A stretch of DNA of 64,000 nucleotides from Candidatus Buchananbacteria bacterium (GTDB lineage Bacteria > Patescibacteriota > Patescibacteriia > 2-01-FULL-39-33 > JBAYJR01), in the NCBI GenBank assembly GCA_041665005.1, contig JBAYJR010000005.1, positions 16,312 through 80,311 of the forward strand. Reading direction: 5' to 3'. The position numbers were made by a program, and so were the translations under genes. Under the pieces are notes generated by a model, which was not told where the DNA came from, made no database searches, and saw only the letters and a list, made by a program, of their open reading frames with translations. This document shows, piece after piece, positions 17,503 through 62,444 of the stretch. The number at the start of each line of letters is the position of its first letter. Position 1 is the first letter of the stretch.

Positions 17503-17516
17503 TATAATAATTTCAA

Positions 17517-42091: not shown

Positions 42092-42119
42092 AAAATATTA
42101 AATTCATTGATCACTTTAT

Positions 42120-43364
42120 TTAATTCACTTTCTCACCATCCCAGATTCTAACAATACCATCTTTGCCAGCAGTAACGATTTTACCGTCAGCTAACATTTG
42201 GAACATACAGTCAGTACTAGTAAATTGTTCAGCTTCTTGATAATCACCTTGCTTGTCTGGTTCTAATATTTTAATCTTGTCATCTCCACTAGCAACAATC
42301 CGATTATCAGGTAAAATTTGTAAACACTCCACCGGTTTTTCGTCAAAGCATTTAATTATTTTGGATTTACTTATTTTAGATTCTTTAAACAGAATTTCCC
42401 CGGTACGATTACCAATAATAACTTGACCATCTGACATGATTTGACTGCTCTTTAAGGAAGCATTTCTACTATCAATATGGCCACTAAAGCTTAAAAAATC
42501 TTGCTTGAAATTACTTCTTTGCTCTTTTAATTCAACATAGTTGCCCTTATCATCCATTTGCCAAATTTTAATCATAGTATCATCGTTGCGCATTTTGTGC
42601 AATGAAACAACCTGGTTATTAGTTAAAATTTTTAGTTCGTCAGGCCATTCATCGTCATAACTACTATGAATATGCTGATTTGGCTGACCATCAGCATCTA
42701 GCAAAAATTTACCTTCGGCGTCTGGCTGCCAAAGTTTAATCTCGGTAGTAGCGCTACCAGCGATAATTCGGCCGTCAGAAAAAACCTGCAAACAAGTAAC
42801 CCAACAAACGGCATGTTTATTATAAAATCCTCTAAAGGTTTGGTTTTGGTAACCACCCTGTTGATCTAAAGTCCAGATGTTGATAATACCATATTGACCA
42901 CCTGAGACAATTTGACCATCAGGTAAAACTTGTAATTTATAATTAGTACCCGATCTTTTTTCAAAAACTTTGTTTTTAAGAACTTTTACCTGATAATCAC
43001 CCTGCTGATCCGGCTGGCAAATTGTAACAGTATTTTCAGTACCACAAACAATCCGACCATCAGGTAAAACTTGCAGAGCATAAATATTTCCATCGTCAAT
43101 TTTAAAGCTTTTTACTTCGTGATAATTTTTTTTCTTTTCTACCGATTCCAGCTCTTTGAAATAAAGATAGGTTTTTTCAACTCGTCGCCAAGCCTCTTGT
43201 GCTAAATTAACTTGTTGCTCTAATTTATTTTTAATATCTCTAGCCAAAATTAAATATTCCGGTTTACCAGTTGATGGCAAATTAGACAGTTCCTGATTAA
43301 ATTGTCTCTGAAGCTCTTTTAGATTACCTAGCTTAATGGAGAGTTCGGGGCAAAGTTGAGACAT
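42120..43364 (-). CDS. paralog 4 of the family: shared N-terminal module fused to a ~7-bladed WD40-like beta-propeller
   Basis: MSQLCPELSIKLGNLKELQRQF... N-terminus, then repeated LQVLPDGRIV.G....I.IW blades (LQVLPDGRIVCG, LQVLPDGQIVSGG, LQVFSDGRIIAG, QIMSDGQVIIG, LQILPDNRIVASG, FQMLADGKIVTAG). Confidence 0.5.
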   Translation of the reverse strand: MSQLCPELSIKLGNLKELQRQFNQELSNLPSTGKPEYLILARDIKNKLEQQVNLAQEAWRRVEKTYLYFKELESVEKKKNYHEVKSFKIDDGNIYALQVLPDGRIVCGTENTVTICQPDQQGDYQVKVLKNKVFEKRSGTNYKLQVLPDGQIVSGGQYGIINIWTLDQQGGYQNQTFRGFYNKHAVCWVTCLQVFSDGRIIAGSATTEIKLWQPDAEGKFLLDADGQPNQHIHSSYDDEWPDELKILTNNQVVSLHKMRNDDTMIKIWQMDDKGNYVELKEQRSNFKQDFLSFSGHIDSRNASLKSSQIMSDGQVIIGNRTGEILFKESKISKSKIIKCFDEKPVECLQILPDNRIVASGDDKIKILEPDKQGDYQEAEQFTSTDCMFQMLADGKIVTAGKDGIVRIWDGEKVN

Positions 43365-43394
43365 AAAATTATAATAACATTAACAACGTAAAAA

Positions 43395-44480
43395 TTATAT
43401 CACACTAATCGCCGAGCGGGTACCAGGAGGCCAAATAAGATCCTTAACCCCTTTATGTGTCGTAAATCTAATTTCAAAATTGCTTCTATTAAAGAATACA
43501 AGCGGTATTGATTTATCATGAACAAAAAAACTACTCAATAACAAACAAGGCACCTTTGAAGCAGCGCTATAAATTTGAAGTTCGGCATCAATGTCGTCTA
43601 TAAATTGATTAGTAGTTTGTAAATGCGTCAAGGCATAAGCTATCCAAGACTCTGGGGTTAAACCTTGTTCACCTTGATACTGTGGATTAGTCTGAAGTTG
43701 TTCAAGATACCAATCAGGTTCCTTGCCAGTTTTTGCCTCTAATTGTTTTCTACCATTAAGAGTTTGGCTTCGGCCTTCTGCCGGTAAATTTGATAAGTCT
43801 TCCACCAATAGCACCTGCCAAGCTTGGGTGGGTAAAAGCTCTAACTTGGTTTTACCTTGATGGTTGGTTTTAGAAAATTTCTTAGGAAAATAAACCAATT
43901 GATCTTTTCCTTGATAATTTTGATCTCGGTTATTTGGCTGGATTTCGCTAATTGGAAAGTGTTTATTGTTGACATCAAAAAGTTTGTTTTGTCGGTGATG
44001 TTCAACCAAAGCTTCACTATAGGCATAAGTTAAACTATCTAAAGTTAAACCAAAGGGAATCATAATCAATTTGGTAAAACCCTGCTTAATTTTAGTTTCA
44101 AAAAATTCTTTTTGCTCAACAAGTTGTTCGCTAATTTGCTTCAAAGTTGGTATAGGATATTCTTTATTATCAATTGCCTGAATTCCTAATTCGCCAATAG
44201 ACAAAGGGTGTATTAAATGAGCCTTTAATAGGATATCAATTTGATTGTCATATTGAACCTTAAGATTTTCTTCGCTAAATTCTGGGGTATCAAGCCAGAG
44301 TTCGTTTTGGAGGTCTTGGAGGGTTTGGTTTAGGTTAAATTTTATATCCCTAACTAAAACCAAATCCTCTGGTTTATTAGGACTTAGACTTTGCGCTTTG
44401 GTTAATTCTTGACCAAACTGTCCTTGGAGCTCTTTTAAAGCTTCTAACTCAGTGGTAAGTTCTAGACAACTTTTTCTCAT
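43395..44480 (-). CDS. paralog 5 of the family (full-length type)
   Basis: MRKSCLELTTELEALKELQGQF...; YPIPTLKQI, GFTKLIMIPFGLTLDSL, LLPTQAWQVLL and YLEQLQTNPQYQGEQGLTPESWIAYAL. Confidence 0.5.
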   Translation of the reverse strand: MRKSCLELTTELEALKELQGQFGQELTKAQSLSPNKPEDLVLVRDIKFNLNQTLQDLQNELWLDTPEFSEENLKVQYDNQIDILLKAHLIHPLSIGELGIQAIDNKEYPIPTLKQISEQLVEQKEFFETKIKQGFTKLIMIPFGLTLDSLTYAYSEALVEHHRQNKLFDVNNKHFPISEIQPNNRDQNYQGKDQLVYFPKKFSKTNHQGKTKLELLPTQAWQVLLVEDLSNLPAEGRSQTLNGRKQLEAKTGKEPDWYLEQLQTNPQYQGEQGLTPESWIAYALTHLQTTNQFIDDIDAELQIYSAASKVPCLLLSSFFVHDKSIPLVFFNRSNFEIRFTTHKGVKDLIWPPGTRSAISVI

Positions 44481-45024: not shown

Positions 45025-47694
45025 CTATTTAGAGGTGTAACTAATCTTTAATTTTTCTTCCACGGCTGCTTGAGCGGCGGCTAACCTAGCAATCGGTACG
45101 CGGTAAGGTGAGCAAGAAACATAATTCATACCCACGCGATGACAAAATTTAACGGAATCTGGGTCGCCACCGTGTTCACCACAAATGCCAATCTTTAAAT
45201 CTTTTTTAACCGACCGACCTAAATTAATACCCATTTGCACTAATTTACCAACGCCGGCTTGGTCTAAAGTTTGAAACGGATCGGCTTTTAAGATTTTCTT
45301 TTCTAAATACACCTTAATAAATTTACCAGAATCGTCACGTGAAAAGCCCATTCCCATTTGCGTTAAGTCATTAGTACCAAAGGAGAAAAAGTCGGCTTCG
45401 GCGGCAATTTCATCAGCCGTCACCGCCGCGCGCGGCACTTCAATCATCGTACCAATCTTGTAAGGCAACTTAACGCCATACTTCTTTAAAGTCTGTTCCG
45501 CAATCGTAATCACTAATTCTTTTTGATTTTTTAATTCGCTAACATTGCCAACCAAGGGAATCATAATTTCGGGCACTACTTTTATTTTGTCTTCTTTATA
45601 CAATTCACAGGCCGCGGAAATTATGGCTTCGGTTTGCATTTCGGTAATTTCGGGATAAGTAATACCTAAGCGACAACCGCGGTGCCCCAACATGGGATTA
45701 AATTCGTGCAGTTCATTGGACTTAGCCCAAATCTTTTCGGCTGGCACGCCAATTTTCTTGGATAAAATTTCTGCTTCTTCCTTGGTCTTGGGCACAAATT
45801 CATGCAACGGTGGATCTAAAAATCTAATGGTCACCGGAAAGCCCTTCATTTCTTTAAACAAACCTTTAAAATCGTTTTTTTGGAACGGTAATAACTTGGC
45901 CAAGGCTTTGCGGCGATCTTCCACTTTTTCCGCAATAATCATTTCTTGCATAAACGGTAAACGTTCTTCGGCAAAAAACATATGTTCCGTGCGACATAAG
46001 CCGATTCCTTCAGCCCCAAAGCTTTTGGCAACTTTAGCATCGCGAGGAATGTCGGCATTAGCGCGCACGCCAATCTTTTTTATTTCATTGACCCACTTCA
46101 TAAACACACCAAATTCGCCGGTCATTTGCGGTTCCACCGTGGCTACTTTACCAATAATTACTTCACCGGTAGAACCATTGATGGTTAAATAATCCCCTTC
46201 GCTTAAAGTTTGACCGTTCAAGATTAATTTTTTTGTATGTTCATTAACTTTAATTTCTTCGCAACCCGCTACGCAACATTTACCCATCCCCCGCGCTACC
46301 ACCGCCGCATGCGAAGTCATGCCTCCGCGTGCTGTCAAAATACCTTGGGCGGCATCCATACCATGAATGTCGTCTGGACAAGTTTCGGTGCGTACTAAAA
46401 TAACTTTTTCTGTTTCGCCTAATTCTACCGCCCGGTCCGAAGTAAAGACAATTTTACCCACCGCCGCACCAGGTGAAGCCGGTAAACCTTTGGCCGCCAC
46501 GCTGTATTTGGCTTTAGGGTCAATAATGGGATGTAATAATTGATTTAATTGTTCAGGCTCCACGCGCATAATCGCCTCTTGTTTGGTAATCAATTTTTCC
46601 TTAACCATATCTACCGCTAATTTCACCGCGGCTTGCGCGGTGCGCTTGCCCGTGCGAGTTTGCAACATATACAACACATCTTGTTCAATGGTAAATTCAA
46701 AATCTTGCACATCACGATAATGCTTTTCTAATTTTTTGGTAATGGTATGTAGTTGTTTAAAAGCTTTGGGCATTTCTTTGGCCAAATTAGCAATTGGTCG
46801 TGGAGTACGAATACCGGCCACCACATCTTCACCTTGAGCGTTAGTTAAATATTCACCATAAAACACATTATCACCATTAGCCGGGTTACGGGTAAAACCC
46901 ACCCCCGTGGCGCAATCTTCGCCCATATTACCAAACACCATGGCTTGCACATTAACCGCCGTGCCTAAATTATCTGCAATTTTATTTAAGCGACGATAAG
47001 TAATGGCTCGCGGATTCATCCAACTATTAAACACGGCATTACGGGCCATTTCTAATTGTTTAATTACTTCTTGCGGAAACTCTTTACCAGTCCGTTCTTT
47101 AACTAAAGTTTTATATTCTTTAATAATGCTTTGCAAATCTTCGGCGCGTAATTCGGTGTCTAATTTAATTTTTAAACTTTCTTTTTTGGCGGTTAAAATT
47201 TCTTCAAATTCTTCTTTAGCAATTTCTAACACCACATTACCAAACATTTGAATAAAACGACGATAAGCATCATAACCAAACCGTGGATTGTTGGTTTTAG
47301 CAATTAGACCTTTGACCGTTTCATCATTTAAACCTAAATTTAAAATAGTATCCATCATGCCAGGCATGGAAAATTTTGCGCCCGAACGAACAGATAGTAA
47401 TAACGGATTTTTAATCTCACCAAGCTTTTTACCAGTCGCCTTTTCTACCTTAGTTAAGGCCGCCAACATTTGACCATTTAATTCTTTGGGTAATTTTTGT
47501 TTATTAGCATCATAATAATTACAAACTTCAGTGGTGATAGTAAAACCTGGAGGCACGGGTACACCCGTGTTGGTCATTTCGGCTAAACCGGCACCCTTAC
47601 CGCCTAATAAATCTTTCATTTGTCCATTGCCTTCAGCCCGACCGTGGCCAAAAAAATAAACAAACTTACCTTTTTTGGAAGAACTTTTTTTCAT
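45025..47694 (-). CDS. ppdK: pyruvate, phosphate dikinase
   Basis: 889 aa. N-terminus KFVYFFGHG...LLGGKGAGLAEM; central phospho-His swivel (GGMTSHAAVVARGMG); C-terminal PEP/pyruvate TIM barrel (RFLDPPLHEF..GTNDLTQ). Confidence 0.9.
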   Translation of the reverse strand: MKKSSSKKGKFVYFFGHGRAEGNGQMKDLLGGKGAGLAEMTNTGVPVPPGFTITTEVCNYYDANKQKLPKELNGQMLAALTKVEKATGKKLGEIKNPLLLSVRSGAKFSMPGMMDTILNLGLNDETVKGLIAKTNNPRFGYDAYRRFIQMFGNVVLEIAKEEFEEILTAKKESLKIKLDTELRAEDLQSIIKEYKTLVKERTGKEFPQEVIKQLEMARNAVFNSWMNPRAITYRRLNKIADNLGTAVNVQAMVFGNMGEDCATGVGFTRNPANGDNVFYGEYLTNAQGEDVVAGIRTPRPIANLAKEMPKAFKQLHTITKKLEKHYRDVQDFEFTIEQDVLYMLQTRTGKRTAQAAVKLAVDMVKEKLITKQEAIMRVEPEQLNQLLHPIIDPKAKYSVAAKGLPASPGAAVGKIVFTSDRAVELGETEKVILVRTETCPDDIHGMDAAQGILTARGGMTSHAAVVARGMGKCCVAGCEEIKVNEHTKKLILNGQTLSEGDYLTINGSTGEVIIGKVATVEPQMTGEFGVFMKWVNEIKKIGVRANADIPRDAKVAKSFGAEGIGLCRTEHMFFAEERLPFMQEMIIAEKVEDRRKALAKLLPFQKNDFKGLFKEMKGFPVTIRFLDPPLHEFVPKTKEEAEILSKKIGVPAEKIWAKSNELHEFNPMLGHRGCRLGITYPEITEMQTEAIISAACELYKEDKIKVVPEIMIPLVGNVSELKNQKELVITIAEQTLKKYGVKLPYKIGTMIEVPRAAVTADEIAAEADFFSFGTNDLTQMGMGFSRDDSGKFIKVYLEKKILKADPFQTLDQAGVGKLVQMGINLGRSVKKDLKIGICGEHGGDPDSVKFCHRVGMNYVSCSPYRVPIARLAAAQAAVEEKLKISYTSK

Positions 47695-48179: not shown

Positions 48180-48208
48180 TTGACAAAATTCAAAAAGTGT
48201 GCTATGTT
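48180..48208 (+). promoter_or_regulatory. array-A promoter copy 1 (TTGACA-aaattcaaaaagtgtgc-TATGTT)
   Basis: The 23-nt core TTGACAAAATTCAAAAAGTGTGC is repeated verbatim at 49117. Confidence 0.45.
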
Positions 48209-48275
48209 TAAATATCTATAATAAACTAAGGTTTATTAAGATAAATTTTTTAATACCCACAAGGAGGGTAAAAAA

Positions 48276-49055
48276 ATGAGTAGCACATTAAAAATCTTCG
48301 TCGCCTGCTTTTCAGGCGGAATTATCGGCGGTTTGGTTGCTCTGCAACTCCACCCCGAAATTTGGTGGCTTGGTATGGTGGTCGGTTTTTTAACTGGCTA
48401 CCTAACTTATGACTTCAAGCAAGTCATAAGCGCAGTAAAATATGTGGGAAAAAGTTATATACCTGCGTATTTCAGAACCTTACCCATTCGGTATAAATTT
48501 TTTAAATACGCCCTGGTTGCTGTCGCTACTATTTATAACGGTATAATGGCCGGCTGTATAATTATGTATGGCTTAATAGGCTTGGCGGCACCATCCCAGC
48601 CAAAAGTTTTAAAGACTATAATGGAACTTGCAGAGATGGTTATTGCTATGAACTCAGCTCCCTTAATATTGGTAGCCATTTTTTCCTTAGTGGGATCTTT
48701 TCCTCACTTTAGTGAAATTAAAGATGCCAAACGAAGAGCAAAAGAAATTAACCCCATTGCTATCACTAAATCATGTGTCCGGTGGGGATTAAAAATTGCC
48801 CGCAACACCCCAGAATTTTTTAATAAGTGTTTAACATTTATTAAAATTTTCTGCCAAATCATAACAAAAGTTTTCCGGATAATTCATTCGGATAACCGGC
48901 TGATTTGCGGAGTTTATTCCGCAATTGCTGCCAGTATCTGTTTCTTCACCGGCAACGCGTTGATTGGCGCACTGATTGGCGCAGTACTCGGCGTGATCAG
49001 TAAAAAAACAATCGGCTATTGGCTTGCAAAAAACCCGATAGCAATCAAATCCTAA
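48276..49055 (+). CDS. array-A gene 1: polytopic membrane protein (259 aa), hypothetical
   Basis: GGAGGG SD 8 nt before the ATG; at least 6 TM helices. Confidence 0.5.
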   Translation: MSSTLKIFVACFSGGIIGGLVALQLHPEIWWLGMVVGFLTGYLTYDFKQVISAVKYVGKSYIPAYFRTLPIRYKFFKYALVAVATIYNGIMAGCIIMYGLIGLAAPSQPKVLKTIMELAEMVIAMNSAPLILVAIFSLVGSFPHFSEIKDAKRRAKEINPIAITKSCVRWGLKIARNTPEFFNKCLTFIKIFCQIITKVFRIIHSDNRLICGVYSAIAASICFFTGNALIGALIGAVLGVISKKTIGYWLAKNPIAIKS

Positions 49056-49076
49056 TCTTATTGCAAAATCAACCAG

Positions 49077-49110
49077 CAGATGAACCAAAAATTCATCTGC
49101 TTTTTATTTT
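49077..49110 (+). terminator. array-A terminator copy 1 (GCAGATGAA-ccaaaaa-TTCATCTGC + T-run)
   Basis: An identical 25-nt hairpin recurs at 49558 and 50059. Confidence 0.55.
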
Positions 49111-49116
49111 GAACTA

Positions 49117-49145
49117 TTGACAAAATTCAAAAAGTGTGCTATATA
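49117..49145 (+). promoter_or_regulatory. array-A promoter copy 2 (TTGACA-17-TATATA)
   Basis: Same -35 and spacer as copy 1. Confidence 0.45.
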
Positions 49146-49172
49146 TAAACTAAATAATAAGGAGGAAAAACT

Positions 49173-49544
49173 ATGCTATACCTAAAAATATCCATGTGTT
49201 TAGCAGCCGCATTAGTCATTGCTTGTGGTGCAATGCTAGTGGTTATAGGAGTTGGTCTACATACTGGGCTAGATATGACTCAGGTAATAAATGAAAATAT
49301 AATGAGTATTTTTACGTTTATTTTTTGCATTATCACAGGAATCATTTTAGCATTGCTCGACTCCTATCTATTTAAAAAAGGAGCCGTCAAGGATAACCGC
49401 AGGTATTTAATGATTCTGGCAACGCTTGTTTTTTTTGTTGCCAGCGTATTGTCGCTCCGTTATGGTAAAGTTATACCAGTAATTTTAATACTCACGATTA
49501 TTGCTTTAAATGGAGTGGTAATAAAGAGTTGGTTTAAAAAATAG
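49173..49544 (+). CDS. array-A gene 2: small 4-TM membrane protein (123 aa)
   Basis: AGGAGG SD; hydrophobic. Confidence 0.5.
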   Translation: MLYLKISMCLAAALVIACGAMLVVIGVGLHTGLDMTQVINENIMSIFTFIFCIITGIILALLDSYLFKKGAVKDNRRYLMILATLVFFVASVLSLRYGKVIPVILILTIIALNGVVIKSWFKK

Positions 49545-49557
49545 CGCGCAATCCATT

Positions 49558-49592
49558 GCAGATGAACCAAAAATTCATCTGCTTTTTTATTT
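49558..49592 (+). terminator. array-A terminator copy 2
   Basis: Identical hairpin GCAGATGAACCAAAAATTCATCTGC followed by TTTTTT. Confidence 0.55.
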
Positions 49593-49599
49593 AATACTC

Positions 49600-49628
49600 T
49601 TGACAAAATTAAAGTACAATGCTATAAA
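49600..49628 (+). promoter_or_regulatory. array-A promoter copy 3 (TTGACA-17-TATAAA)
   Basis: TTGACAAAATT... is a variant of the copy 1/2 core. Confidence 0.4.
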
Positions 49629-49662
49629 TTTATTAAATCTACAAATAAAAGGAGGGATTAAT

Positions 49663-50049
49663 ATGTTAGAAAGGCCGAGCATTGCTTTAACAGAAGAAGA
49701 ACCCTGGTCCTGGTTAAAAATAATTATTGCATTCACAGTAGTGTTGACCTGTATTTCTTCTTATATCTATGGCGCAGCCGCAAAACTAAGCATGGTTTCT
49801 TTATTACTTGCTCTGGTTTTTATTACCATTAGCTGTGTAATAGACGACCTGAAAAGTATAAAAAGAGGAAACTATGGATTCAGAAGACATTCTATATTTT
49901 CTATAATGTTTTTTGTGTTTGCAATTGTGGCTGGCTATAGAATTAGCGGGATTATTTCCGCAATTATATTTGTTCCTATGATCCCCTATTTTTATGGGCT
50001 CGTTAAGAACAAGTTTATGAACCGGGATATCCGCGAAAACCCCACCTAA
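49663..50049 (+). CDS. array-A gene 3: small 4-TM membrane protein (128 aa)
   Basis: AAAGGAGGG SD, then ATG at 49663. The track ORF begins at an upstream TTG inside the promoter. Confidence 0.5.
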   Translation: MLERPSIALTEEEPWSWLKIIIAFTVVLTCISSYIYGAAAKLSMVSLLLALVFITISCVIDDLKSIKRGNYGFRRHSIFSIMFFVFAIVAGYRISGIISAIIFVPMIPYFYGLVKNKFMNRDIRENPT

Positions 50050-50058
50050 AAAACAACA

Positions 50059-50093
50059 GCAGATGAACCAAAAATTCATCTGCTTTTTATTTA
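50059..50093 (+). terminator. array-A terminator copy 3
   Basis: Identical hairpin followed by TTTTTATTT. Confidence 0.55.
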
Positions 50094-50217
50094 ATATGGA
50101 AGTGGATTGCTTTTTTATCCCCCTCTCTTAAGGTAAGAGAGGGCTGGGGGTGAGTTATGAGCGATTACATAATTATAACCCCTCCTTGATCCTCCCCTTA
50201 TATTAAGGGGAGAAATA

Positions 50218-52711: not shown

Positions 52712-52872
52712 AAGATTATGAAGTTAAAAGTTAAAAAGTATAAAGTTGAAAGTAAGGACTAAACGAGGGATAAAGTTAAAAGTTAAAAAGTTTAAAGTAA
52801 ATAATACAACTATATTTTCTCACTTTTCGGCTATAATGTCAAAAGAAGAGATTGGCACGTTAATCCGGTTAT

Positions 52873-52900
52873 TGACAAAATTTTAAAAACCAGTTATGCT
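52873..52900 (+). promoter_or_regulatory. array-B promoter 1 (TTGACA-16-TATGCT)
   Basis: Followed by AGGAGG and ATG 52939. Confidence 0.4.
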
Positions 52901-52938
52901 GAGTTTGAAAATTATAAAATTTTTAGGAGGAAATCGCA

Positions 52939-53295
52939 ATGACTGCGAAAAAAACCACTTTACAAAAAGAGTTTTTAGAAAAAAAGGTTGGGGAATTTAC
53001 AGTTACTTTTACAAAAAAAATGATTGCCCCAAAAAATACGAGGATACCGTTAACGGTATCCCATGGAAAACGTAAAAACAAAACTCACATAACACTGGGG
53101 CTGATAGTTGCACCCAGGCCAGGAGTTTTTAAGCAAAAAATACTTTGTGGCATGATTGATGAAATCATCGTCACTAAAAAAGCGGAAGTAAGTTTTATTG
53201 TCGCTTTTGCTTTCATTGAACAAGACGGCAACATCGTTAATCGGCAACTACCGATGCGATATGACCAGCTAGTTGCTAAACAATCGAGAAGCTGA
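52939..53295 (+). CDS. array-B gene 1: small hypothetical protein (118 aa)
   Basis: Strong SD, its own promoter and its own terminator. Confidence 0.5.
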   Translation: MTAKKTTLQKEFLEKKVGEFTVTFTKKMIAPKNTRIPLTVSHGKRKNKTHITLGLIVAPRPGVFKQKILCGMIDEIIVTKKAEVSFIVAFAFIEQDGNIVNRQLPMRYDQLVAKQSRS

Positions 53296-53306
53296 ACATC
53301 TCTAAG

Positions 53307-53340
53307 CCCTAATCAATAAGATTAGGGTTTTTTTATTTAA
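53307..53340 (+). terminator. array-B terminator copy 1 (CCCTAATC-aataa-GATTAGGG + T7)
   Basis: An identical 21-nt hairpin recurs at 54061, 54727 and 55358. Confidence 0.55.
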
Positions 53341-53387
53341 ATCAATTCCCCTACTTTTTTGTGCTTACAACAATAAAAAACAGATGG

Positions 53388-53416
53388 TTGACATTGATAG
53401 GTAAAAGTGTTAAGGT
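53388..53416 (+). promoter_or_regulatory. array-B promoter 2 (TTGACA-17-TAAGGT, weak -10)
   Basis: AGGAGG at 53435, ATG at 53449. Confidence 0.35.
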
Positions 53417-53448
53417 TTTAATAATTTACAACAAAGGAGGAAAAAATT

Positions 53449-54036
53449 ATGAACACAACTTGGCAGTTTGAAGAACAGGAAAAAAGAGAAAAAGCCGAGG
53501 CGGAATTACTGGCTGAACAAACCATCGCCAAAGAGCAAATAACTAAACTTTGGGAAAAATTTTTAGAGTTGAACAATCAACTAATTCCTAGCTTAAAATT
53601 AACTATTCAAAAAAGAGATTTTGGTTTTATTCTTGGTTATGACGATCCTGGCTATCATAGTTATAGAGATTTAATAGCTATTACTATCTATACGGACGAA
53701 TTACTGAGTAAGCCCGGTAACGAATCATGTATGCAAATATGCGGCGATTACCCGATACGCTACCGGGACAACCTAAAAATGTTTGAAATACAGAACAATG
53801 ACTATCACTCTATGTTTTTCAAACTCGATGATCAAGTCTTAATTGAAGAATTTTTTCGTTTAATCATCTGCAATCCTAGAGGAATAAGTGATCTTATCAA
53901 AAGTAAATGGCAAGAAGCAAAAAGTATTGAAGCGCCTGAAAGCCCTGGTCTTACGCTATATCTTCCGCAAGAACCGGTTAGCCTGTGGGAATCATTCAAA
54001 AATATGATGAATGATTTTTTTAATTTTTTTAAATAA
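53449..54036 (+). CDS. array-B gene 2: hypothetical protein (195 aa), distant paralog of genes 3 and 4
   Basis: Shared motifs LWEKFLELNNQL and YHSMFFKLDDQVLIEEFFRLIICN. Confidence 0.5.
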   Translation: MNTTWQFEEQEKREKAEAELLAEQTIAKEQITKLWEKFLELNNQLIPSLKLTIQKRDFGFILGYDDPGYHSYRDLIAITIYTDELLSKPGNESCMQICGDYPIRYRDNLKMFEIQNNDYHSMFFKLDDQVLIEEFFRLIICNPRGISDLIKSKWQEAKSIEAPESPGLTLYLPQEPVSLWESFKNMMNDFFNFFK

Positions 54037-54060
54037 AATTATCCGTCTAAAGAACCCAAA

Positions 54061-54094
54061 CCCTAATCAATAAGATTAGGGTTTTTTTATTTAA
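54061..54094 (+). terminator. array-B terminator copy 2
   Basis: Identical hairpin followed by TTTTTTTATTT. Confidence 0.55.
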
Positions 54095-54135
54095 ATCAAC
54101 TCCCCGCCTTTTTGTAGTGTGGCTAAATTAATCGG

Positions 54136-54164
54136 TTGACAGTTACCAAAAATAATGCTATGGT
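54136..54164 (+). promoter_or_regulatory. array-B promoter 3 (TTGACA-17-TATGGT)
   Basis: GGAGGG at 54184, ATG at 54196. Confidence 0.4.
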
Positions 54165-54195
54165 GTAAATAATTAAAACCAATGGAGGGACAAAA

Positions 54196-54711
54196 ATGAA
54201 CCAAAGATATAACGACGCCACCAGGTATAAACTTTACAGAATTGAGATACTTTGGAAAAAATTTTTACAACTAAACGAAAAAATGGAACCGGCAAAAAAA
54301 TTGAAGTGCATTAACGAACCTTGTTTCTGGCTAAACGAATTTTCGCCGGAACAACTAATACGAGGAAAGCCGGATTTAAAAAAATTAGATTTTGTTTTAA
54401 AACTAATAAAGCCCAGAAACAACGATGCCGAACCGGCAATCCAGCTAGAAGTGGGGTTTATTAATTACTCAATCTCGAGAAACTGCTACCACTTTGAGAT
54501 TCCCGATCATCCAACGATTTCGCATTATTTTTTCCTGATTGAAAATACCGAGTTTGTTGCCGGATTATTTAATTGTATTGTGGCTGGTGATTTTATAAAC
54601 TTACCAGCACCACCAGTTTTACCAGCCAAGGCCAAGCCAGACAGCCTTTTAACCAAATTTAAATTTTGGCTAAAGGATTATAAGGACTGGCTCAAAAGCA
54701 TACTTTGCTAA
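54196..54711 (+). CDS. array-B gene 3: hypothetical protein (171 aa), paralog of genes 2 and 4
   Basis: ILWKKFLQLNEKM and ISHYFFLIENTEFVAGLFNCIVAG. Confidence 0.5.
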   Translation: MNQRYNDATRYKLYRIEILWKKFLQLNEKMEPAKKLKCINEPCFWLNEFSPEQLIRGKPDLKKLDFVLKLIKPRNNDAEPAIQLEVGFINYSISRNCYHFEIPDHPTISHYFFLIENTEFVAGLFNCIVAGDFINLPAPPVLPAKAKPDSLLTKFKFWLKDYKDWLKSILC

Positions 54712-54726
54712 TTATGCAAACCAAAA

Positions 54727-54755
54727 CCCTAATCAATAAGATTAGGGTTTTTATT
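54727..54755 (+). terminator. array-B terminator copy 3
   Basis: Identical hairpin followed by TTTTT. Confidence 0.55.
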
Positions 54756-54770
54756 ACATCTAAGATTAGA

Positions 54771-54799
54771 TTGACATTCTTGCCCTAAGTTGTTAAAAT
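54771..54799 (+). promoter_or_regulatory. array-B promoter 4 (TTGACA-17-TAAAAT)
   Basis: GAGGAGG at 54817, ATG at 54831. Confidence 0.4.
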
Positions 54800-54830
54800 C
54801 TTGATAATTTACAATTGAGGAGGAAAAACG

Positions 54831-55370
54831 ATGGAAATAAGTGCTAAGAGTATTCAAAAACAAAAAGAAAAGGAAGAAATTATTAAGGCCAAACAGAAAG
54901 CCATAAAAGAGGCTATTTTGTGGCTGTGGTCCAGGATTCCGCATTTTTGTGAGCAACTCGACAACTACAAACTGGATGGGGTTTGTCCACCAGGCTATAT
55001 TCAATGTTACATTTGTCGTCAACGATTTGACGTACCTGACTATGCTCTATGGCTGAATATAAGAAATGATACGGGTGGAATATATTATTGTATTGAAATT
55101 GGTGACCGCATTATGCATTTACAAGGATGTATCAAATACGATCCACGAAAAGAAAGGTTTGAGCTCTATTGCTATTATCACCCCAAACATAAAGTACATT
55201 ATTTTAATTTTCAAGATAATGCCTTTATTAAAACCTTAATTGAGGGAATTGCCTTAAACAAAAAAGTTGACGATCTCTATCATGATTTGGATGCGCTAGC
55301 CCCACCCTTGAAAATTTTTGTTTTTTTTAAAAAAATAAAAAAACTTTTTACCAAAAACCCTAATCAATAA
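54831..55370 (+). CDS. array-B gene 4: Cys/His-rich hypothetical protein (179 aa), paralog of genes 2 and 3
   Basis: VHYFNFQDNAFIKTLIEGIALN and several C/H pairs (CPPGYIQCYICRQ...HLQGC...CYYHPKH). The stop codon lies in the loop of the terminator hairpin. Confidence 0.5.
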   Translation: MEISAKSIQKQKEKEEIIKAKQKAIKEAILWLWSRIPHFCEQLDNYKLDGVCPPGYIQCYICRQRFDVPDYALWLNIRNDTGGIYYCIEIGDRIMHLQGCIKYDPRKERFELYCYYHPKHKVHYFNFQDNAFIKTLIEGIALNKKVDDLYHDLDALAPPLKIFVFFKKIKKLFTKNPNQ

Positions 55371-55388
55371 GATTAGGGTTTTTTATTC
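55358..55388. terminator. array-B terminator copy 4 (bidirectional with the GerMN gene)
   Basis: Identical hairpin followed by TTTTTTATTC. Confidence 0.55.
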
Positions 55389-55406: not shown

Positions 55407-56408
55407 TTACGGCTGTAAAATATCTTCGGAACGGCCGTTGATGGAAATAACAACAGATTTAATAGTCGGAAATTGTAATAAAGTTTGAGTAATTTGCCCA
55501 CGAATATTCGCCACGCGACAAGAACCACCAACTTGAAAATCTAACTGATCACTAAAATCTGCCTTAGCTACGCCTTGATCGGTAATTTCTATTTTTTGTA
55601 ACTTAGTTGCACTAGGAATATTAGTAAAATACCCTGCCGTCTTTTCCTCGGCGGTAATCCCCTTTAGTAATTCCGTAATCGCCGCTTTAGCGGTGGCAAC
55701 AGTATAAGGAATAACGCGTTCGACGGCAAAAACTTTTTGACAATCCAGCATTTCCGAATCCTTGATAGTATTAGCAAAAAATATTTTGACGGTTAAATCT
55801 TGTGGAACAATGTTTGGTACAATCGTAACCGGCAGACTAAAAGTTTGATCATTTTGTGGTAAGCCAGAAGGATTGTCTTTACTAAAGACTAACAGGCCAG
55901 TAGTAGTAGTGGTAACTTTAAATTCTATGGCGCCCTTAAACCGGACATAGCCAGTTTGCATCCAATCATCTATCGCCTGCACATAGCTTTGAGCCAGCAC
56001 TTGATTATTTTGACCAATTAGTTTAACCGGAAAAGAACCTTCAAAAAACCACGAGCCCAAGGCCCGGCCAGTTAAGTTTAGCGGACTGCTAATTGAATCG
56101 TTGGCTTTTAGGCCGTCTAAAATTACCGGCAAATCTTCTACAAAAGTTTTATCTTCAAAACGACACTGGCGCGGATAAGTTTCCATCACCGGCAAACCTA
56201 GCGCCGCACATTCGGTAAAATTTGTTACCGCTTTGACCTCGCCACAACCAGTTAGGGGTGGCGTAGCATTTGGCTTACCATGTTTAACCCAGGCACCATT
56301 TTGACACAACCAAGTATCTTCATCACCGCTAAGTAGCCGTAAACCGATGATGATTAAAATTAAAATAATTAAAATTGTAACCAAACCAATAAACCAAGAT
56401 TTTTTCAT
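55407..56408 (-). CDS. membrane-anchored GerMN-domain protein
   Basis: N-terminal TM helix (FIGLVTILIILILIIIGL) and a C-terminal GerMN-like region ending in VISINGRSEDILQP. Confidence 0.5.
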   Translation of the reverse strand: MKKSWFIGLVTILIILILIIIGLRLLSGDEDTWLCQNGAWVKHGKPNATPPLTGCGEVKAVTNFTECAALGLPVMETYPRQCRFEDKTFVEDLPVILDGLKANDSISSPLNLTGRALGSWFFEGSFPVKLIGQNNQVLAQSYVQAIDDWMQTGYVRFKGAIEFKVTTTTTGLLVFSKDNPSGLPQNDQTFSLPVTIVPNIVPQDLTVKIFFANTIKDSEMLDCQKVFAVERVIPYTVATAKAAITELLKGITAEEKTAGYFTNIPSATKLQKIEITDQGVAKADFSDQLDFQVGGSCRVANIRGQITQTLLQFPTIKSVVISINGRSEDILQP

Positions 56409-57881: not shown

Positions 57882-60800
57882 TTATTTATTAATAATTCTA
57901 ACTATCCCCTTGCCGCCATCTACTTCTACTAGATCCCCATCATGCAAAACTTTAGTGGCAATTTTAGTCCCAATCACACAAGGAATGCCCAATTCGCGGG
58001 AAATAATTGCCGCATGAGAAGTTATTCCTCCCTCATCCGTAATAACAGCGACCGCTTTTTTCATTAGAGGAACAAACTCCGGCCGAGTCATACCCGTTAC
58101 CAATATTTCACCAGTTTTAAAATTATCAAATTCCATCTTTTTTAGAATAATTTTAATTTTACCTCGGGCTTGCCCAGCCGAGGCTCCCTCGCCTTTAATT
58201 ATATCCTCATCCTTATCTGGATCTGCTGTAGCATTTTGAGCCAAAAGTCTTTGGTCTAAAACCTTAAGCTCCTTTGGTGATTCACCAATTTTTTCTTCAT
58301 ATTCATCATGACCAAAATAAATTACCGATACCTCTTCCGCCCGGGCCATAATTTGAGATCTGTGATCTAAAATATACTGTTTGCCTTTCAAAACCTCGGG
58401 GATAAAAGAAAGCGTAACTAGCGCTTGATCAATTCCCCACCGTCGATAAAGATCCTTAGTAATATCAAAAATTAACGCATCACCCTTATTAATAGCTACC
58501 TTCCGATCATCTCTAAGAAAACCAGACCAATCAATAAATTCCAGGATTTGACGTTCCAATTTATTTAAATTGCGTGCTTGTTTGATCTTTATTTTTTTAT
58601 TCTCCAACATCACCTTTTTGCTAGCCGCTAATTTAGTGGAGGCGGCCTTAATATCAATTGACTTGATAGTGGTTTTTATTTCATCCAGCGATGGAACATG
58701 GGTATAGTTGGTATAAATATATTGCAATTTACTAAGATCGCCCTGATTTTTAACAGTAGCAATAATCTCCTCGTTGTTATGCTGTTCAAATGATAAAAAA
58801 TCTAAAATCTGCGAGGCTGCCCAAATTTTATCGAGATCAACTCTTAATTTTTTTTGTTTCAAAGTCTCACTAATAATTCGCTGATCTAAAGTGTCTAAAA
58901 ATAGAGTTTGGGCCACCAATTCTTTTAGACAGCCGTAGACGTTTTTAAGTTCAAAAAGTAAACCATCTTCAGTGATAAATTTTTTGGCAAAATACGAATC
59001 ATAAGACTTATTAATTGCCTGATTAAGTAGCTGATAGCTCCTCATGGCCTTTTTAATAGTAAATTTACCCTTCAAAAACTGCGAAAAAACTATCTTAGGA
59101 ACACCATTGTATTTAGTAAAACTTACATAAGCTCTAACAAAGGCTCCTTTTTTATGACAAAAATAGGGATAAATATCTTCACTCAACTTATTATTACTAT
59201 CATAATAATTAAACCAATCCAAAACCACCAACAATGGCAAAAAATCTGCCTCAAAGGTCATCAACTGCTCGTGGCCCTTAAGAGCTAAAAACTTTTGTAC
59301 CAACGAATTAGCCTTGTTATTTTCTTCCTTGCCCTGTTTAGTTTCTAAAATTTTTACTATCCCCTTATTAGCGTCTACTTCCACCAAATCACCATCCTGC
59401 AAAACTTGAGTGGCAATTTTAGTGCCGATAACGCAAGGTTTTTTCATTTCTCTAGCGACAATCGCCGCGTGACAAGTAATCCCGCCCTCATCTGTCACAA
59501 AAGCCGCCGCTTTTTTCATCGCCGGTAGATATTCCGGTCTAGTCATCGGGGAAACCAAAACATCTCCGCTCTCAATTTTAACTAAATCTTTGACAGTAAA
59601 AACAATTTTTGCTTTTCCCTTTATACTGCCTCGATAAGCGATAGTACCAGACACCTCTCCGTTTTTGTTGCTTACCACCGTAGCTGTCAACTGAATATCA
59701 TGTTCAACAAAAAAATTCTTAAACTTCTGACCAGCAAAAACTTGATCGCGATAATAAATATAGCCCAAAGCTCGCTCTTTTAATTGTTTAATAATTTTTT
59801 GATCAACTTTCTGTTTAAAAACTTCTTTTGGCAACAAAAATTTTACCTGATCACCTAGTTTTGAAAAAAGTCTTTTTAGATTAACAATAAACAACTGGTC
59901 TCTTTTGGAAGAATATTTCTCAGTGGCTTCACGCGCCGCTAAGGCTGCCTTACGCAACGATGCGGGTATACTTGTTAATCCCGGTATTACCCATACATAA
60001 GCAATGCCCTCATAAAACCGCAAAAACAATTCATACAAATCTTTTAATTCCTTAATATTTTTTACATACCTCTCTTCATTTAAATAGGGCAGAATATTTT
60101 TTAAGGCGAAATTAAAATCCCTGATAATTTTTTCTACAAATTTTTTATCTTGCGCTTTTTTAGCAATTGCGGCAAACATCCCTTTAATCTCGGCTGGTTC
60201 ATGATAAGTTTCTACCAATTCTTGGGATAAAAATAATTCATTCTCCATCTGGCAACCAAATTTTTGATTAGTTAGTTTTAAAATTTCGCTATAAGCCGCA
60301 ATATGAAACAATGAATATTCACGGCTATGTTCTTTTACTAGAAGCAACTTTTTGTTTTCCTTCTTGCCCTGTTTAATTTCTAATATTTTAACTATTCCCT
60401 GATTAGCATCTACTTCTACCAAATCATTATCTTTTAAAATACTAGTGACAAATTTAGTGCCTACAATACAAGGAATATTAAATTCTCTAGCTACAATAGC
60501 AGCGTGGCTCATCAAACCACCCTCGTCAGTAATAATGGCAGCCGCCTTTCTAATAGCCGGTAATAATTCTGGGCCGGTCGTATCAGAAACTAAAATGTCT
60601 CCTCGCTCCATTTTGCCCAAATATTTTTTAGGATCAAGAGAAAGAGGAATAATTTTAACTCGTCCCTGAGCCTTACCTCGACAAGCCACTACGCCCTTAA
60701 CCTCTGTTTCTGTATAATTACTCTGGAGTAAATTTATTTTTTCTTTAGCCTCTTTTCCGGAAACTATTTTAATACCATTTTCGTAGGTAATATACGAGTA

Positions 60801-62444
60801 TTCATTTCTCGCTGAAACATCGGGAATATCTTTTTCCTTAGACAAACATTTTTTAACTTCTAGCAAGGTCATGGACAATATATCATTTCGGCCAGTCCTT
60901 CTTATTAATTGCAAAAAAACGTTATTAATCAAAGACTCTTCACCCATCAAAGTTTCATTAATAACCTTTCTTAACTCAAATTTCAAATGCTGCATATTAA
61001 TCATATAGTCAGCCAGCCTCCTAATATGCGGAGGGTATTTTTTTAGGCTACCTTTCTTAGCTAAAACTTTTTGCAAGTCCTCTCCTAAAAAAGTTTTTAA
61101 TTCCTGCTCGATTTTTATAAAATAGGTATATTCAGTTATCCTGTAATCTTTTACAAATCTCTCGCCGACTGCAAATAATTTATCCAAAAATAAAATAAAT
61201 TTAGCATCAGATAAAATTCCTAAATTTATTTTGGCAAGCTGTCTAAATTCCCTACCCTCACCTAAAGATCGTTTTTTAAAATTTTCAAAAAAACCTTTCT
61301 GGCTCGCATAAATATAACCAAGTTCTGCTAATTCTTGTTGCCGATTTTCTGAAAGATAAAATATCCATTTACTATCAACTATCGTGACCAAGGGGCCTAA
61401 TTCTCGATAAGCCAAAAAAAAGAAATCTGTCATTAAAACATTGTACTCGGCAAATTTAAAAATTGGCTGATACTGGTTTGCTTCTACCACGGGCTTTTTG
61501 GTCTGTAGTGTAGTAATCGGCCGGCTTTGGACAATATAAAACTTTCCTTTTTCAAAAGCCCATTCAATATCACAAGGGAAGCCATAATGCTTTTCAATTT
61601 GGATAATAATATCGGAAAGCTTAAGAATTTGTTGATTAGTTAGGGTTTGTTTTTTACCTTCGCCTGACGAAATATCACGCCACTCATTGCCGCCCCCATT
61701 AATCCTAAATAAGCCTCTTTCTTGGTGGCTAACATTAATATCAATAATTTTACGGGGCTGCTTTTCTAAGACATAACTATCTGGCGTGATTTGACCGGAC
61801 ACTATCGCCTCACCTAGGCCTAAGCCAGCCTCAATGATCATTTGGTTATAATCTTGAGTAACTGGATGCACCGAAAAAGCAATACCCGATATTTCTGACT
61901 CTACCATTTTTTGTATTACTACAGCTACGGAAATTTTTTGGCCATGCAAGCCCTTTTCAAAACGATAAAAAATCGCCCGCGGGGTAAATAGAGAGGCCCA
62001 ACAACGCTTAACGTTTTCTAAAAGTTTTTTTTCAGTGGTATTAAGAAAACTATCCAGCTGACCTGCCCAAGCGGCGCTAGCCGAATCTTCGGCGGTTGCA
62101 CTGGATCGAACTGCTACATACTTACTGTTCAGCTTTTTAAATTCTTGCATAACCAGCCGCTCAATCGATGGAGGCATCTTAGCCAACAAAATCAAAGCTT
62201 GAATTTTTTCCGAAGCCGCCTCCACTTCGCCAACTTCTTGGTGGTTAACCTTATCCAAAATAGACTCCAATTCTACCTGGAGATGTGTTTGTTTGATAAA
62301 TTCTTCAAAAGCCTGAGCTAAAATTACAAAACCAGGAGGCACCGGAATACCGGCTTGAGTCATTTCACCCAAGGAAGCGCCTTTACCACCGGCAATCGCC
62401 GCGTTATTACGATTTAGTCTTTCAAATTTTTTAATAAAATCCAT
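57882..62444 (-). CDS. giant PEP-synthase/PPDK-family phosphotransferase: N-terminal ATP-binding (PPDK_N) domain followed by three X-domain + phosphohistidine 'swivel' domain modules
   Basis: aa 1-315 match the PPDK_N ATP-grasp region (AIAGGKGASLGEM...VQSRPIT). Three PEP-utilizer His domains: ITDEGGLMSHAAIVAREF (H647, codon 60504-60506), VTDEGGITCHAAIVAREM (H992, 59469-59471) and ITDEGGITSHAAIISREL (H1477, 58014-58016). Each is followed by CV(I)GTK...DGDLVEVD...GIV. Confidence 0.75.
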   Translation of the reverse strand: MDFIKKFERLNRNNAAIAGGKGASLGEMTQAGIPVPPGFVILAQAFEEFIKQTHLQVELESILDKVNHQEVGEVEAASEKIQALILLAKMPPSIERLVMQEFKKLNSKYVAVRSSATAEDSASAAWAGQLDSFLNTTEKKLLENVKRCWASLFTPRAIFYRFEKGLHGQKISVAVVIQKMVESEISGIAFSVHPVTQDYNQMIIEAGLGLGEAIVSGQITPDSYVLEKQPRKIIDINVSHQERGLFRINGGGNEWRDISSGEGKKQTLTNQQILKLSDIIIQIEKHYGFPCDIEWAFEKGKFYIVQSRPITTLQTKKPVVEANQYQPIFKFAEYNVLMTDFFFLAYRELGPLVTIVDSKWIFYLSENRQQELAELGYIYASQKGFFENFKKRSLGEGREFRQLAKINLGILSDAKFILFLDKLFAVGERFVKDYRITEYTYFIKIEQELKTFLGEDLQKVLAKKGSLKKYPPHIRRLADYMINMQHLKFELRKVINETLMGEESLINNVFLQLIRRTGRNDILSMTLLEVKKCLSKEKDIPDVSARNEYSYITYENGIKIVSGKEAKEKINLLQSNYTETEVKGVVACRGKAQGRVKIIPLSLDPKKYLGKMERGDILVSDTTGPELLPAIRKAAAIITDEGGLMSHAAIVAREFNIPCIVGTKFVTSILKDNDLVEVDANQGIVKILEIKQGKKENKKLLLVKEHSREYSLFHIAAYSEILKLTNQKFGCQMENELFLSQELVETYHEPAEIKGMFAAIAKKAQDKKFVEKIIRDFNFALKNILPYLNEERYVKNIKELKDLYELFLRFYEGIAYVWVIPGLTSIPASLRKAALAAREATEKYSSKRDQLFIVNLKRLFSKLGDQVKFLLPKEVFKQKVDQKIIKQLKERALGYIYYRDQVFAGQKFKNFFVEHDIQLTATVVSNKNGEVSGTIAYRGSIKGKAKIVFTVKDLVKIESGDVLVSPMTRPEYLPAMKKAAAFVTDEGGITCHAAIVAREMKKPCVIGTKIATQVLQDGDLVEVDANKGIVKILETKQGKEENNKANSLVQKFLALKGHEQLMTFEADFLPLLVVLDWFNYYDSNNKLSEDIYPYFCHKKGAFVRAYVSFTKYNGVPKIVFSQFLKGKFTIKKAMRSYQLLNQAINKSYDSYFAKKFITEDGLLFELKNVYGCLKELVAQTLFLDTLDQRIISETLKQKKLRVDLDKIWAASQILDFLSFEQHNNEEIIATVKNQGDLSKLQYIYTNYTHVPSLDEIKTTIKSIDIKAASTKLAASKKVMLENKKIKIKQARNLNKLERQILEFIDWSGFLRDDRKVAINKGDALIFDITKDLYRRWGIDQALVTLSFIPEVLKGKQYILDHRSQIMARAEEVSVIYFGHDEYEEKIGESPKELKVLDQRLLAQNATADPDKDEDIIKGEGASAGQARGKIKIILKKMEFDNFKTGEILVTGMTRPEFVPLMKKAVAVITDEGGITSHAAIISRELGIPCVIGTKIATKVLHDGDLVEVDGGKGIVRIINK

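Follow-up and report, generated by a model that had tools for sequence, protein, structure and literature searches.

How do four neighbouring genes come to end in the same hairpin, letter for letter, while their coding regions have diverged? This question is raised by a locus of Candidatus Buchananbacteria that we call array B. The locus lies in a stretch of 64,000 nt (hereafter, the window; positions 16,312 to 80,311 of the forward strand of contig JBAYJR010000005.1), which falls within the 82.5-kb contig ENA ERZ27249449 k141_918023, and it comprises four small genes (B1 to B4; locus tags WCW02_02710-02725 in the NCBI metagenome-assembled genome, MAG), each associated with one copy of the 21-mer CCCTAATCAATAAGATTAGGG. 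The pattern is real, statistically unambiguous and unusual in comparison with a 1.2-Mb control. Its best explanation, as judged from sequence, is that array B represents a lineage-private tandem array of four putatively monocistronic units, placed in opposite orientation between two minus-strand housekeeping operons.

Four units and their terminator hairpin

The elements of array B, with their coordinates in the window, are the following.

52872..52900, plus strand: promoter of B1, TTGACA-17-TATGCT, starting with the 11-mer TTGACAAAATT
52939..53295, plus strand: B1, orphan open reading frame (ORF) of 118 aa, MFA6428434.1, with AGGAGG at 52925-52930
53304..53359, plus strand: T1 module, hairpin at 53307-53327 followed by T7, with a spacer tract 93% identical to the tract after T2
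53388..53416, plus strand: promoter of B2, TTGACA-17-TAAGGT
53449..54036, plus strand: B2, orphan ORF of 195 aa, MFA6428435.1, paralogue of B3
54058..54113, plus strand: T2 module, hairpin at 54061-54081 followed by T7, plus the conserved spacer tract
54136..54164, plus strand: promoter of B3, TTGACA-17-TATGGT, the -10 box having TG upstream
54196..54711, plus strand: B3, orphan ORF of 171 aa, MFA6428436.1
54724..54752, plus strand: T3 module, hairpin at 54727-54747 followed by T5
54761..54769, plus strand: partial copy of the hairpin 3′ arm (TAAGATTAG, 9 nt, arm and loop end), 14 nt after T3 and touching the -35 box of B4
54771..54799, plus strand: promoter of B4, TTGACA-17-TAAAAT, 11/12 consensus positions
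54831..55370, plus strand: B4, orphan ORF of 179 aa, MFA6428437.1, marginal paralogue of B2 and B3
55353..55383, no strand assigned: T4 module, symmetric, hairpin at 55358-55378 between A5 and T5-6

Exact search recovered CCCTAATCAATAAGATTAGGG four times in the window, at 53307, 54061, 54727 and 55358, always on the plus strand and always followed by a T-run, against zero occurrences expected by chance. This agrees with a first reading of this DNA made without database searches (the sequence-only reading), which had described four copies free of mismatches. No fifth match appeared in the window even when up to three mismatches were allowed. Each copy comes after a small ORF (118-195 aa), at a distance from the stop codon of 11 nt for B1, 24 nt for B2 and 15 nt for B3. 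In the case of B4, the TAA stop (55368-55370) lies inside the hairpin loop (55366-55370), as had also been noticed, and the last four codons together with the stop are encoded by the 5′ arm and the loop of the hairpin.

The hairpin has a stem of 8 bp, or 11 bp with its A/U extension, and a loop of 5 nt; an A-tract lies before each copy and T5-7 behind it. Its RNA folds with -13.8 kcal/mol (z ~ -5), a stability equalled by 0 of 200 shuffled sequences. The array B hairpins have the predicted architecture of intrinsic terminators, i.e. a stable stem-loop with a U-tract, near the stop codon and on the coding strand. Considering also the A- and T-tracts, pairwise exact identity around the hairpins extends over runs of 29-39 nt. 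What is conserved is the terminator as a whole, since copies 2-4 also have in common ACC(C/A)AAA(A) upstream and T5-7ATT downstream. At junctions J1 and J2 the identity goes further (39 nt exact, 56 nt at 93%) and reaches apparently non-functional spacer; at T3 and T4 it is lost within a few bases of the module. J3, the shortest junction of array B, contains the 9-nt partial arm copy, which may be a footprint of slippage or illegitimate recombination. T4 lies 24 nt beyond the 3′ end of a convergent gene for a Germane-domain protein (55407-56408, minus strand) and, because of this position and of its symmetry, it is probably bidirectional and would also end the convergent operon.

Upstream, all four genes follow one design, namely TTGACA, a 17-nt spacer, TAnnnT and then GGAGG 7-8 nt before the ATG. 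The sequence-only reading had assigned to each ORF TTGACA-16/17-TAnnnT and AGGAGG; promoter and Shine-Dalgarno (SD) site are indeed present at 4/4 genes, with the corrections that all the spacers are 17 nt long and that the SD site of B3 is TGGAGGG. Perfect promoter-plus-SD combinations of this type number 10 across both strands of the window. The four ORFs were also predicted by independent gene callers (public gene calls) and, under a codon model for which 20 long window genes served as training set, each of them gave a coding signal in frame 0 alone.

One alternative is that the array is an assembly artefact, made of chimeric joins at a short repeat. In fact, the Logan assembly of SRR6484324 (contig L002) breaks inside hairpin T2, its position 1 corresponding to window position ~54070. 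The repeats of array B, however, are 21-56 nt long, below the k = 141 implied by the contig name k141_918023, so that the assembler should resolve them. The Logan contig, which is an independent assembly, reproduces exactly the region from B3 through T3, B4 and T4 to the Germane-domain gene, and every copy of the hairpin sits in a unique and coherent context of ORF, promoter and SD site. We regard an artefact as almost certainly the wrong explanation.

The identity of the four copies would also be unremarkable, as the sequence-only reading had itself pointed out, if the hairpin were the standard terminator of the whole genome. We searched for it in 67.6 kb, i.e. the 64-kb window plus extensions of about 3.6 kb, both as an exact word and with a covariance model of the terminator module. 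The exact search gave four copies and no more. With the covariance model, the four copies scored 58-66 bits and their reverse strands 16-32 bits, and the best score elsewhere in the 67.6 kb was <= 18.7 bits (E >= 0.1), corresponding to generic terminators. By both searches the hairpin is private to the array within this span. Nine other terminator-like hairpins are present in the window, all mutually different.

For a wider comparison we considered 82 loci, mostly from Patescibacteria and covering 1.2 Mb (80 loci of relatives anchored on RlmN, plus the contigs L001 and L002). None of the 82 loci (0/82) uses a terminator hairpin twice; the window has two such sets, that of array B and that of array A described below. 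The exact word CCCTAATCAATAAGATTAGGG had 0 matches in GTDB species-representative genomes, and neither array hairpin had an exact match in viral contigs. In the JGI metagenomes there was one match of CCCTAATCAATAAGATTAGGG, at 4802-4822 of L001 (ERZ891418 NODE-2354), a count close to that expected by chance for the size of the database. We rejected L001 as related, since it is without a T-run and its context is unrelated; there, the 21-mer lies inside a longer stem closed by G-C pairs, beside tandem repeats of ~120 nt (4840-5230) and a tRNA-like sequence. Rfam gave no family at gathering score, only sub-threshold noise, and a literature search on identical terminators returned nothing relevant.

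Divergence of the proteins and extent of the identical flank

For each of the proteins B1, B2, B3 and B4, the sole match among 5.8 billion protein clusters was the query itself (word-indexed search for B1, B3 and B4; exhaustive phmmer scan of 1.84 billion representatives for B2). Each of them is a single-member cluster, known from one contig. Pfam, NCBIfam, PHROGs and PADLOC gave nothing significant for these proteins, hence no immunity, defence or phage family, consistently with the earlier statement that they match no known immunity family. Searches against PDB sequences gave nothing consistent. Two candidates were discarded: P0003, as a homologue of B2, is a 12-fold tandem-repeat protein spuriously matching a lone 27-residue stretch, and a relationship of B2 to a HEPN toxin (PDB search, E = 0.24) was dropped, the match being absent from B3 and B4.

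Proteins 2, 3 and 4 had been described as distant paralogues and protein 1 as unrelated to them. As regards B2 and B3, sequence comparison gives solid support to true paralogy (Smith-Waterman z = 7.5, 0/500 shuffles; BLASTP E = 3.6e-5), and their coding DNA has a block of 28 nt with 82% identity over the LW(E/K)KFL(E/Q)LN motif. For B4 the claim stands only marginally: Smith-Waterman z values are 4.6 and 3.1, and a B2+B3 profile ranked B4 789/2001 among shuffled decoys, i.e. with no separation, two-sequence profile tests being unstable. B1 is unrelated to B2-B4 (z < 1), as proposed. B2-B4 have no transmembrane (TM) segment, and each ends in a proline-rich linker followed by an amphipathic helix rich in aromatic residues and lysine; these predicted helices suggest peripheral membrane association.

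Third codon positions of the paralogues are 35-39% identical, compared with ~27% expected at random, and the coding DNA is therefore near saturation. Against this background we evaluated the claim that the flanks are perfectly homogenised. Over the whole span between the -35 box and the SD site the promoters of B2-B4 have 67-72% identity; once the -35 and -10 boxes are left out, however, this falls to 38-62%, compared with a background of roughly 25-45% for unrelated consensus promoters of the same window. Perfect identity is confined to the terminator module of ~30-40 nt, loop included, and the promoters have diverged. The claim is right for the terminator module, which is 100% identical, and wrong for the promoters. 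The contrast between an identical flanking element and diverged coding regions is real, with third positions near saturation, yet narrower than described. Longer identical tracts are restricted to adjacent units, precisely J1-J2 in array B and the promoters of A1 and A2 in array A, and this fits local homogenisation.

Such strict identity could also mean that the primary sequence of the hairpin is itself under selection, the hairpin being both a terminator and a specific site for a trans-acting factor that co-regulates the array, with array A having its own factor and site. Candidates for the factor would be an RNA-binding protein or an RNase acting at the 3′ ends, or a dimeric DNA-binding protein on the palindrome CCCTAATC-N5-GATTAGGG. 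All 21 of 21 positions are invariant in the four copies, including the 5-nt loop, while adjacent neutral sites are saturated, and termination alone would leave the loop and the particular base pairs unconstrained. The abrupt fall in covariance score, with no diverged copies, is what strict constraint predicts, and at T3 and T4, where identity ends within a few bases, there is no visible long conversion tract. On the other hand, no candidate regulator is encoded beside either array. An operator role is unlikely, since the spacing between a hairpin and the -35 box that follows it is not constant (60, 54 and 24 nt) and no promoter lies downstream of the last copy. Moreover, copying gives a better explanation of the tracts that adjacent units share in apparently non-functional spacer (J1/J2 and the A1 and A2 promoters). 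We consider selection on the hairpin sequence unlikely.

Array A, the surroundings and the origin of the units

A second array of similar construction is found upstream of array B on the same strand, and a third autonomous unit lies farther away.

48180..50083, plus strand: array A, three orphan membrane-protein genes with the same unit design, 2.8 kb upstream of array B
48276-49055, plus strand: A1, with TTGACAAAATT promoter at 48180 and hairpin GCAGATGAACCAAAAATTCATCTGC at 49076
49173-49544, plus strand: A2, with TTGACAAAATT promoter at 49117 and hairpin GCAGATGAACCAAAAATTCATCTGC at 49558
49663-50049, plus strand: A3, with TTGACAAAATT promoter at 49600 and hairpin GCAGATGAACCAAAAATTCATCTGC at 50059
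17175-17540, plus strand: third autonomous unit, with overlapping consensus promoters at 17175 and 17202, AAGGAGG and an 83-aa ORF at 17251-17502

The array A hairpin GCAGATGAACCAAAAATTCATCTGC is present in 3 exact copies (-12.8 kcal/mol) and differs from that of array B. A1-A3 are small polytopic membrane proteins with 4-5 TM segments, each with an SD site, and they are single-member clusters at 90% identity; weak holin-like matches of A1 (E = 0.007) were judged compositional and not retained. The promoters of A1 and A2 share 26 nt exactly, including the whole 17-nt spacer. The 11-mer TTGACAAAATT occurs exactly 4 times in the window, in the three array A promoters and in the promoter of B1, which clusters with the array A promoters. 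B1 is a chimera, because an A-type TTGACAAAATT promoter is joined there to a B-type terminator. A 13-nt inverted piece of hairpin B, CCTAATCTTATTG (49051-49063), overlaps the stop of A1, 13 nt upstream of hairpin A; being within the shuffle background, it is only a weak hint that the two arrays have a common history. The stretch 50120-50212, which lies between array A and the 3′ end of RlmN, contains two G+C-rich hairpins, CCCTCTCTTAAGGTAAGAGAGGG and CTCCCCTTATATTAAGGGGAG, for which Rfam gave only sub-threshold noise. The 83-aa ORF of the third unit is MFA6428394.1, a singleton followed by a private terminator, AAAGAGCGTAAGTAATTACGCTCTTT (17515-17540).

The array genes are the sole un-nested plus-strand ORFs of at least 110 aa between 3.1 and 64 kb, and they are surrounded by ~60 kb of minus-strand housekeeping genes (PPDK, RlmN, SDR, enolase, PGK, iPGM, MreB, hydrogenase subunits and EamA transporters). 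Their codon usage is atypical, with log-likelihood ratios of 0.09-0.34 bits per codon versus >= 0.365 for all 20 reference genes, and their GC content is 0.34-0.38 versus 0.39 for the genome. Integrases, recombinases, transposases (Y1 included), phage genes and tRNAs are all absent from the window, and genes for toxins or secretion were not seen there either. Array B has no flanking direct repeats, and no regulator gene adjoins either array. No sequence in the phage collection is similar to the DNA of array B. In two distant relatives (L015 and L036) the distance between the Germane-domain gene and RlmN is 0.4-1.3 kb; here it is 4.1 kb, including array B. None of the 80 RlmN-anchored loci encodes a relative of the array proteins. 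The SDR gene and B1 diverge from an intergenic region in which we observed a 29-nt direct repeat (93%), ATRAAGTTAAAAGTTAAAAAGTWTAAAGT, at 52718-52746 and 52770-52798.

These observations bear on the possibility that the hairpins serve as boundaries, or as sites of recombination, for a cassette or mobile system, such as an integron or a cluster of attC sites lacking integron integrases (CALIN), a recombinase-associated acquired interbacterial defence (rAID) array, a terminator-targeting insertion, or a local palindrome comparable to repetitive extragenic palindromes (REPs) or miniature inverted-repeat transposable elements. One terminator is common to unrelated ORFs (B1 versus B2-B4), B1 combines the promoter type of one array with the terminator type of the other, the end of the B4 ORF falls within the hairpin, and T3 is followed after 14 nt by a stray 9-nt duplicate of the 3′ arm. 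Orphan proteins, atypical codon usage and the disposition of the arrays as opposite-strand islands also count in favour of such a system. Against it, neither the window nor the flanking called genes contain an integrase, a tyrosine recombinase or a Y1 transposase. The hairpin measures 21-31 nt and is without R/L boxes, GTTRRRY core and GTAG head, and the units differ from integron cassettes in that a promoter accompanies each of them. Both hairpin types are confined to their arrays, with no dispersed or diverged copies in the 67.6 kb; there were 0 exact matches in GTDB representatives and viral contigs, the single metagenome match is at chance level, and the 13-nt piece of hairpin found in array A does not exceed what shuffled sequences give. 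The paralogy of B2 and B3 argues for duplication in situ, which also counts against cassettes. We judge a cassette or mobile system distinctly improbable. Nothing points to cassette replacement, or to the landing pad that the sequence-only reading had listed among comparable layouts: the window and the adjoining called genes lack any integrase, recombinase or transposase, as well as attC-like sites and phage genes.

Comparison with the known systems leads in the same direction. In integron/CALIN arrays and in the rAID-1 arrays of Bacteroidales, small and often orphan genes are separated by a palindromic or repetitive element that is homogeneous within the array (10.1101/471110). Array B is similar in that small orphan genes are parted by an array-uniform palindrome. 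An attC site, however, is about 57-141 nt long, with R″-L″/L′-R′ boxes, a GTTRRRY core and extrahelical bases, whereas the array B repeat is a perfect palindrome of 21-31 nt followed by GTTTTTT. Integrons have IntI with attI and Pc and promoterless cassettes, whereas array B has no recombinase in the window and one promoter per unit. An rAID-1 array is headed by a conserved XerD-family recombinase and contains homologues of T6SS or other immunity genes, and neither was found for array B (Pfam, NCBIfam, PADLOC). Finally, at least two array B units are in-situ paralogues, which sets them apart from both systems.

REPs, and the bacterial interspersed mosaic elements that contain them, are short perfect palindromes situated just after stop codons and able to terminate or stabilise transcripts. 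They are dispersed in tens to hundreds of copies, many of them paired as inverted doublets, and they have a GTAG head and a REP-associated tyrosine transposase (RAYT). The array B hairpin is likewise a short perfect palindrome just past stop codons; in the 67.6 kb covered it has 4 copies, all single and inside 2.1 kb. It differs in the absence of a RAYT/Y1 transposase from the window, and in beginning with CCCTAATC after an A-tract, with no GTAG head.

The units might instead have arrived en bloc, as moron-like units, by horizontal transfer from an unsampled phage, a plasmid or other Patescibacteria, the identity of the hairpins reflecting the design of the donor or a recent amplification there. 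Phage morons carry a promoter and a terminator of their own (PMC3594210), and promoter, ORF and terminator are what defines each array B unit. As predicted from sequence, the array B units are similarly autonomous, with a single ORF in a differently oriented context, and many morons also encode small proteins of unassigned function. Transfer would agree with the opposite strand, with the atypical codon usage, with the presence of orphan proteins throughout and with the absence of the array from 80/80 RlmN-anchored loci of relatives. Array B differs from morons, however, in lying outside any phage, in having a GC content near that of the host, where morons deviate from their neighbours, and in consisting of tandem units (four, and three in array A) that share an identical terminator. 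There are no phage genes nearby, no PHROG match for array B, no similarity to the phage collection and no exact hairpin in viral contigs; tRNA, integrase and flanking direct repeat are absent, and the promoter consensus is the same as that of the host's own genes. Transfer also leaves unexplained the identity of the hairpin amid saturated coding sequence. We hold transfer to be rather improbable.

The closest parallel, by analogy, is given by tandem arrays of immunity or lipoprotein paralogues (esaG, tipC and lpl). In Staphylococcus aureus (esaG and lpl) and Streptococcus mitis (tipC), recombination takes place between short homology blocks at the gene end and in the downstream intergenic region, and exchange between neighbours explains expansion, loss and homogenisation (PMC9484751). 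Array B resembles them as a string of non-identical tandem paralogues (here B2-B3) with a shared DNA block that includes the downstream intergenic region. Its blocks (terminator 100%, J1/J2 56 nt at 93%, coding DNA of the LW motif 28 nt at 82%) are far shorter than those of esaG, by an order of magnitude, and its coding DNA is saturated, whereas the coding regions of esaG, tipC and lpl retain long and highly similar blocks. Unlike those systems, array B has a consensus promoter for each unit, encodes proteins of no known family and has no toxin or secretion locus seen in the window.

Our preferred account of the origin of array B is tandem duplication of self-contained units, with fast divergence of the proteins and short-tract homogenisation of the terminator, to which we give roughly an even chance. 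Precisely, each gene would be transcribed alone, ending at the hairpin with its A-tract, 8-bp stem and U-tract. B2-B4 would derive from tandem duplication of the whole unit, as shown for B2-B3 and probable for B4, and B1, shown to combine an array-A-type promoter with an array-B-type terminator, would be a chimeric addition. The proteins are shown to have diverged very fast, with the ORFs remaining open and coding. The ~30-40-nt module would be kept identical by recurrent short-tract gene conversion or unequal exchange among neighbours, i.e. by concerted evolution. The products would be small non-secreted proteins (B2-B4, with the amphipathic C-terminal helix) in addition to the polytopic membrane proteins of array A, and we can speculate that they are fast-evolving, envelope-associated and engaged in conflict or host interaction. 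Of the earlier proposal of cassette duplication or replacement with conversion of the regulatory shell, this account retains the common unit of B2, B3 and probably B4, together with the local tracts; it leaves aside replacement, and limits conversion to the terminator.

Several points weigh against this account. Tracts of 21-39 nt are at or under the usual minimum for efficient RecA-dependent exchange, and hairpins of intermediate or partly converted form did not turn up. The hairpin census covers 67.6 kb of the genome, and further copies may lie elsewhere. Simple duplication fails to cover every unit, given the marginal homology of B4 and the lack of any relationship for B1. That each unit is transcribed singly and ends at its hairpin is predicted from sequence; a function of the proteins is unsupported by single-sequence AlphaFold2 models, which were unusable (predicted local distance difference test, pLDDT, of 41.5 for B3 and 34.7 for B1). 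Finally, the evidence base is a single MAG contig, and conversion and copy-number events are deduced from it.

A more unusual idea is that the private palindromes are sites of an unrecognised mechanism that builds and reshuffles arrays of fully autonomous cassettes (promoter, ORF, terminator) in the streamlined Patescibacteria without an adjacent recombinase, through an enzyme acting in trans or through template switching of replication at hairpins. We consider it a long shot. If it were true, the chimeric B1, the boundary that slices into the ORF of B4 and the half-arm in J3 would be its footprints, and the arrays would be a nursery for new orphan genes, a functional analogue of the integron.

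Other features of the window and meaning of the array

We also recorded some features of the window away from the arrays. A five-gene cluster on the minus strand (39228-44480) contains three paralogues of ~341-361 aa without Pfam match, one protein of 247 aa and one WD40 protein of 414 aa; 4 of the five genes have in common an 81-nt block at their 5′ end, 69-77% identical. On the same strand, 57882-62444 encodes an unusually long protein of 1520 aa with PPDK_N and three internal PEP-utilizer repeats (279 nt, 67-73% identical), about 10 kb downstream of the canonical PPDK of 889 aa (45025-47694). Also on the minus strand, 13895-17088 contains two cofactor-independent phosphoglycerate mutases of 557 and 531 aa, which are paralogues in tandem and whose predicted ORFs overlap. 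The cumulative GC skew peaks near 19-20 kb (~19000-21000), with positive skew before the peak and negative skew after it, and gene orientation is constant there; the peak could be a replication-related switch of polarity or a compositional boundary. The skew is negative over 20-64 kb. Short insulated units may suit genes that oppose the prevailing gene direction, and also replication if negative skew in this region corresponds to the leading strand.

The description that suits array B best is that of autonomous orphan-gene units in tandem, whose private terminator undergoes concerted evolution. It is a real but modest curiosity, and its significance is modest for now because the evidence comes from a single MAG contig. 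If our account is true, the locus would present an inverted pattern of conservation, with a letter-perfect non-coding terminator next to proteins diverged past recognition, and it would be a compact natural case of concerted evolution acting on a regulatory element of ~30-40 nt. It would also show in what way orphan genes are housed and multiplied by a tiny, one-strand-biased genome of a candidate phylum, namely as insulated units placed on the opposite strand. Short identical terminators break small-k assemblies, and arrays of this kind could be under-represented in such data. Repeats of identical terminators would flag lineage-specific and probably fast-evolving envelope-associated proteins, which are candidates for interaction with hosts or phages.

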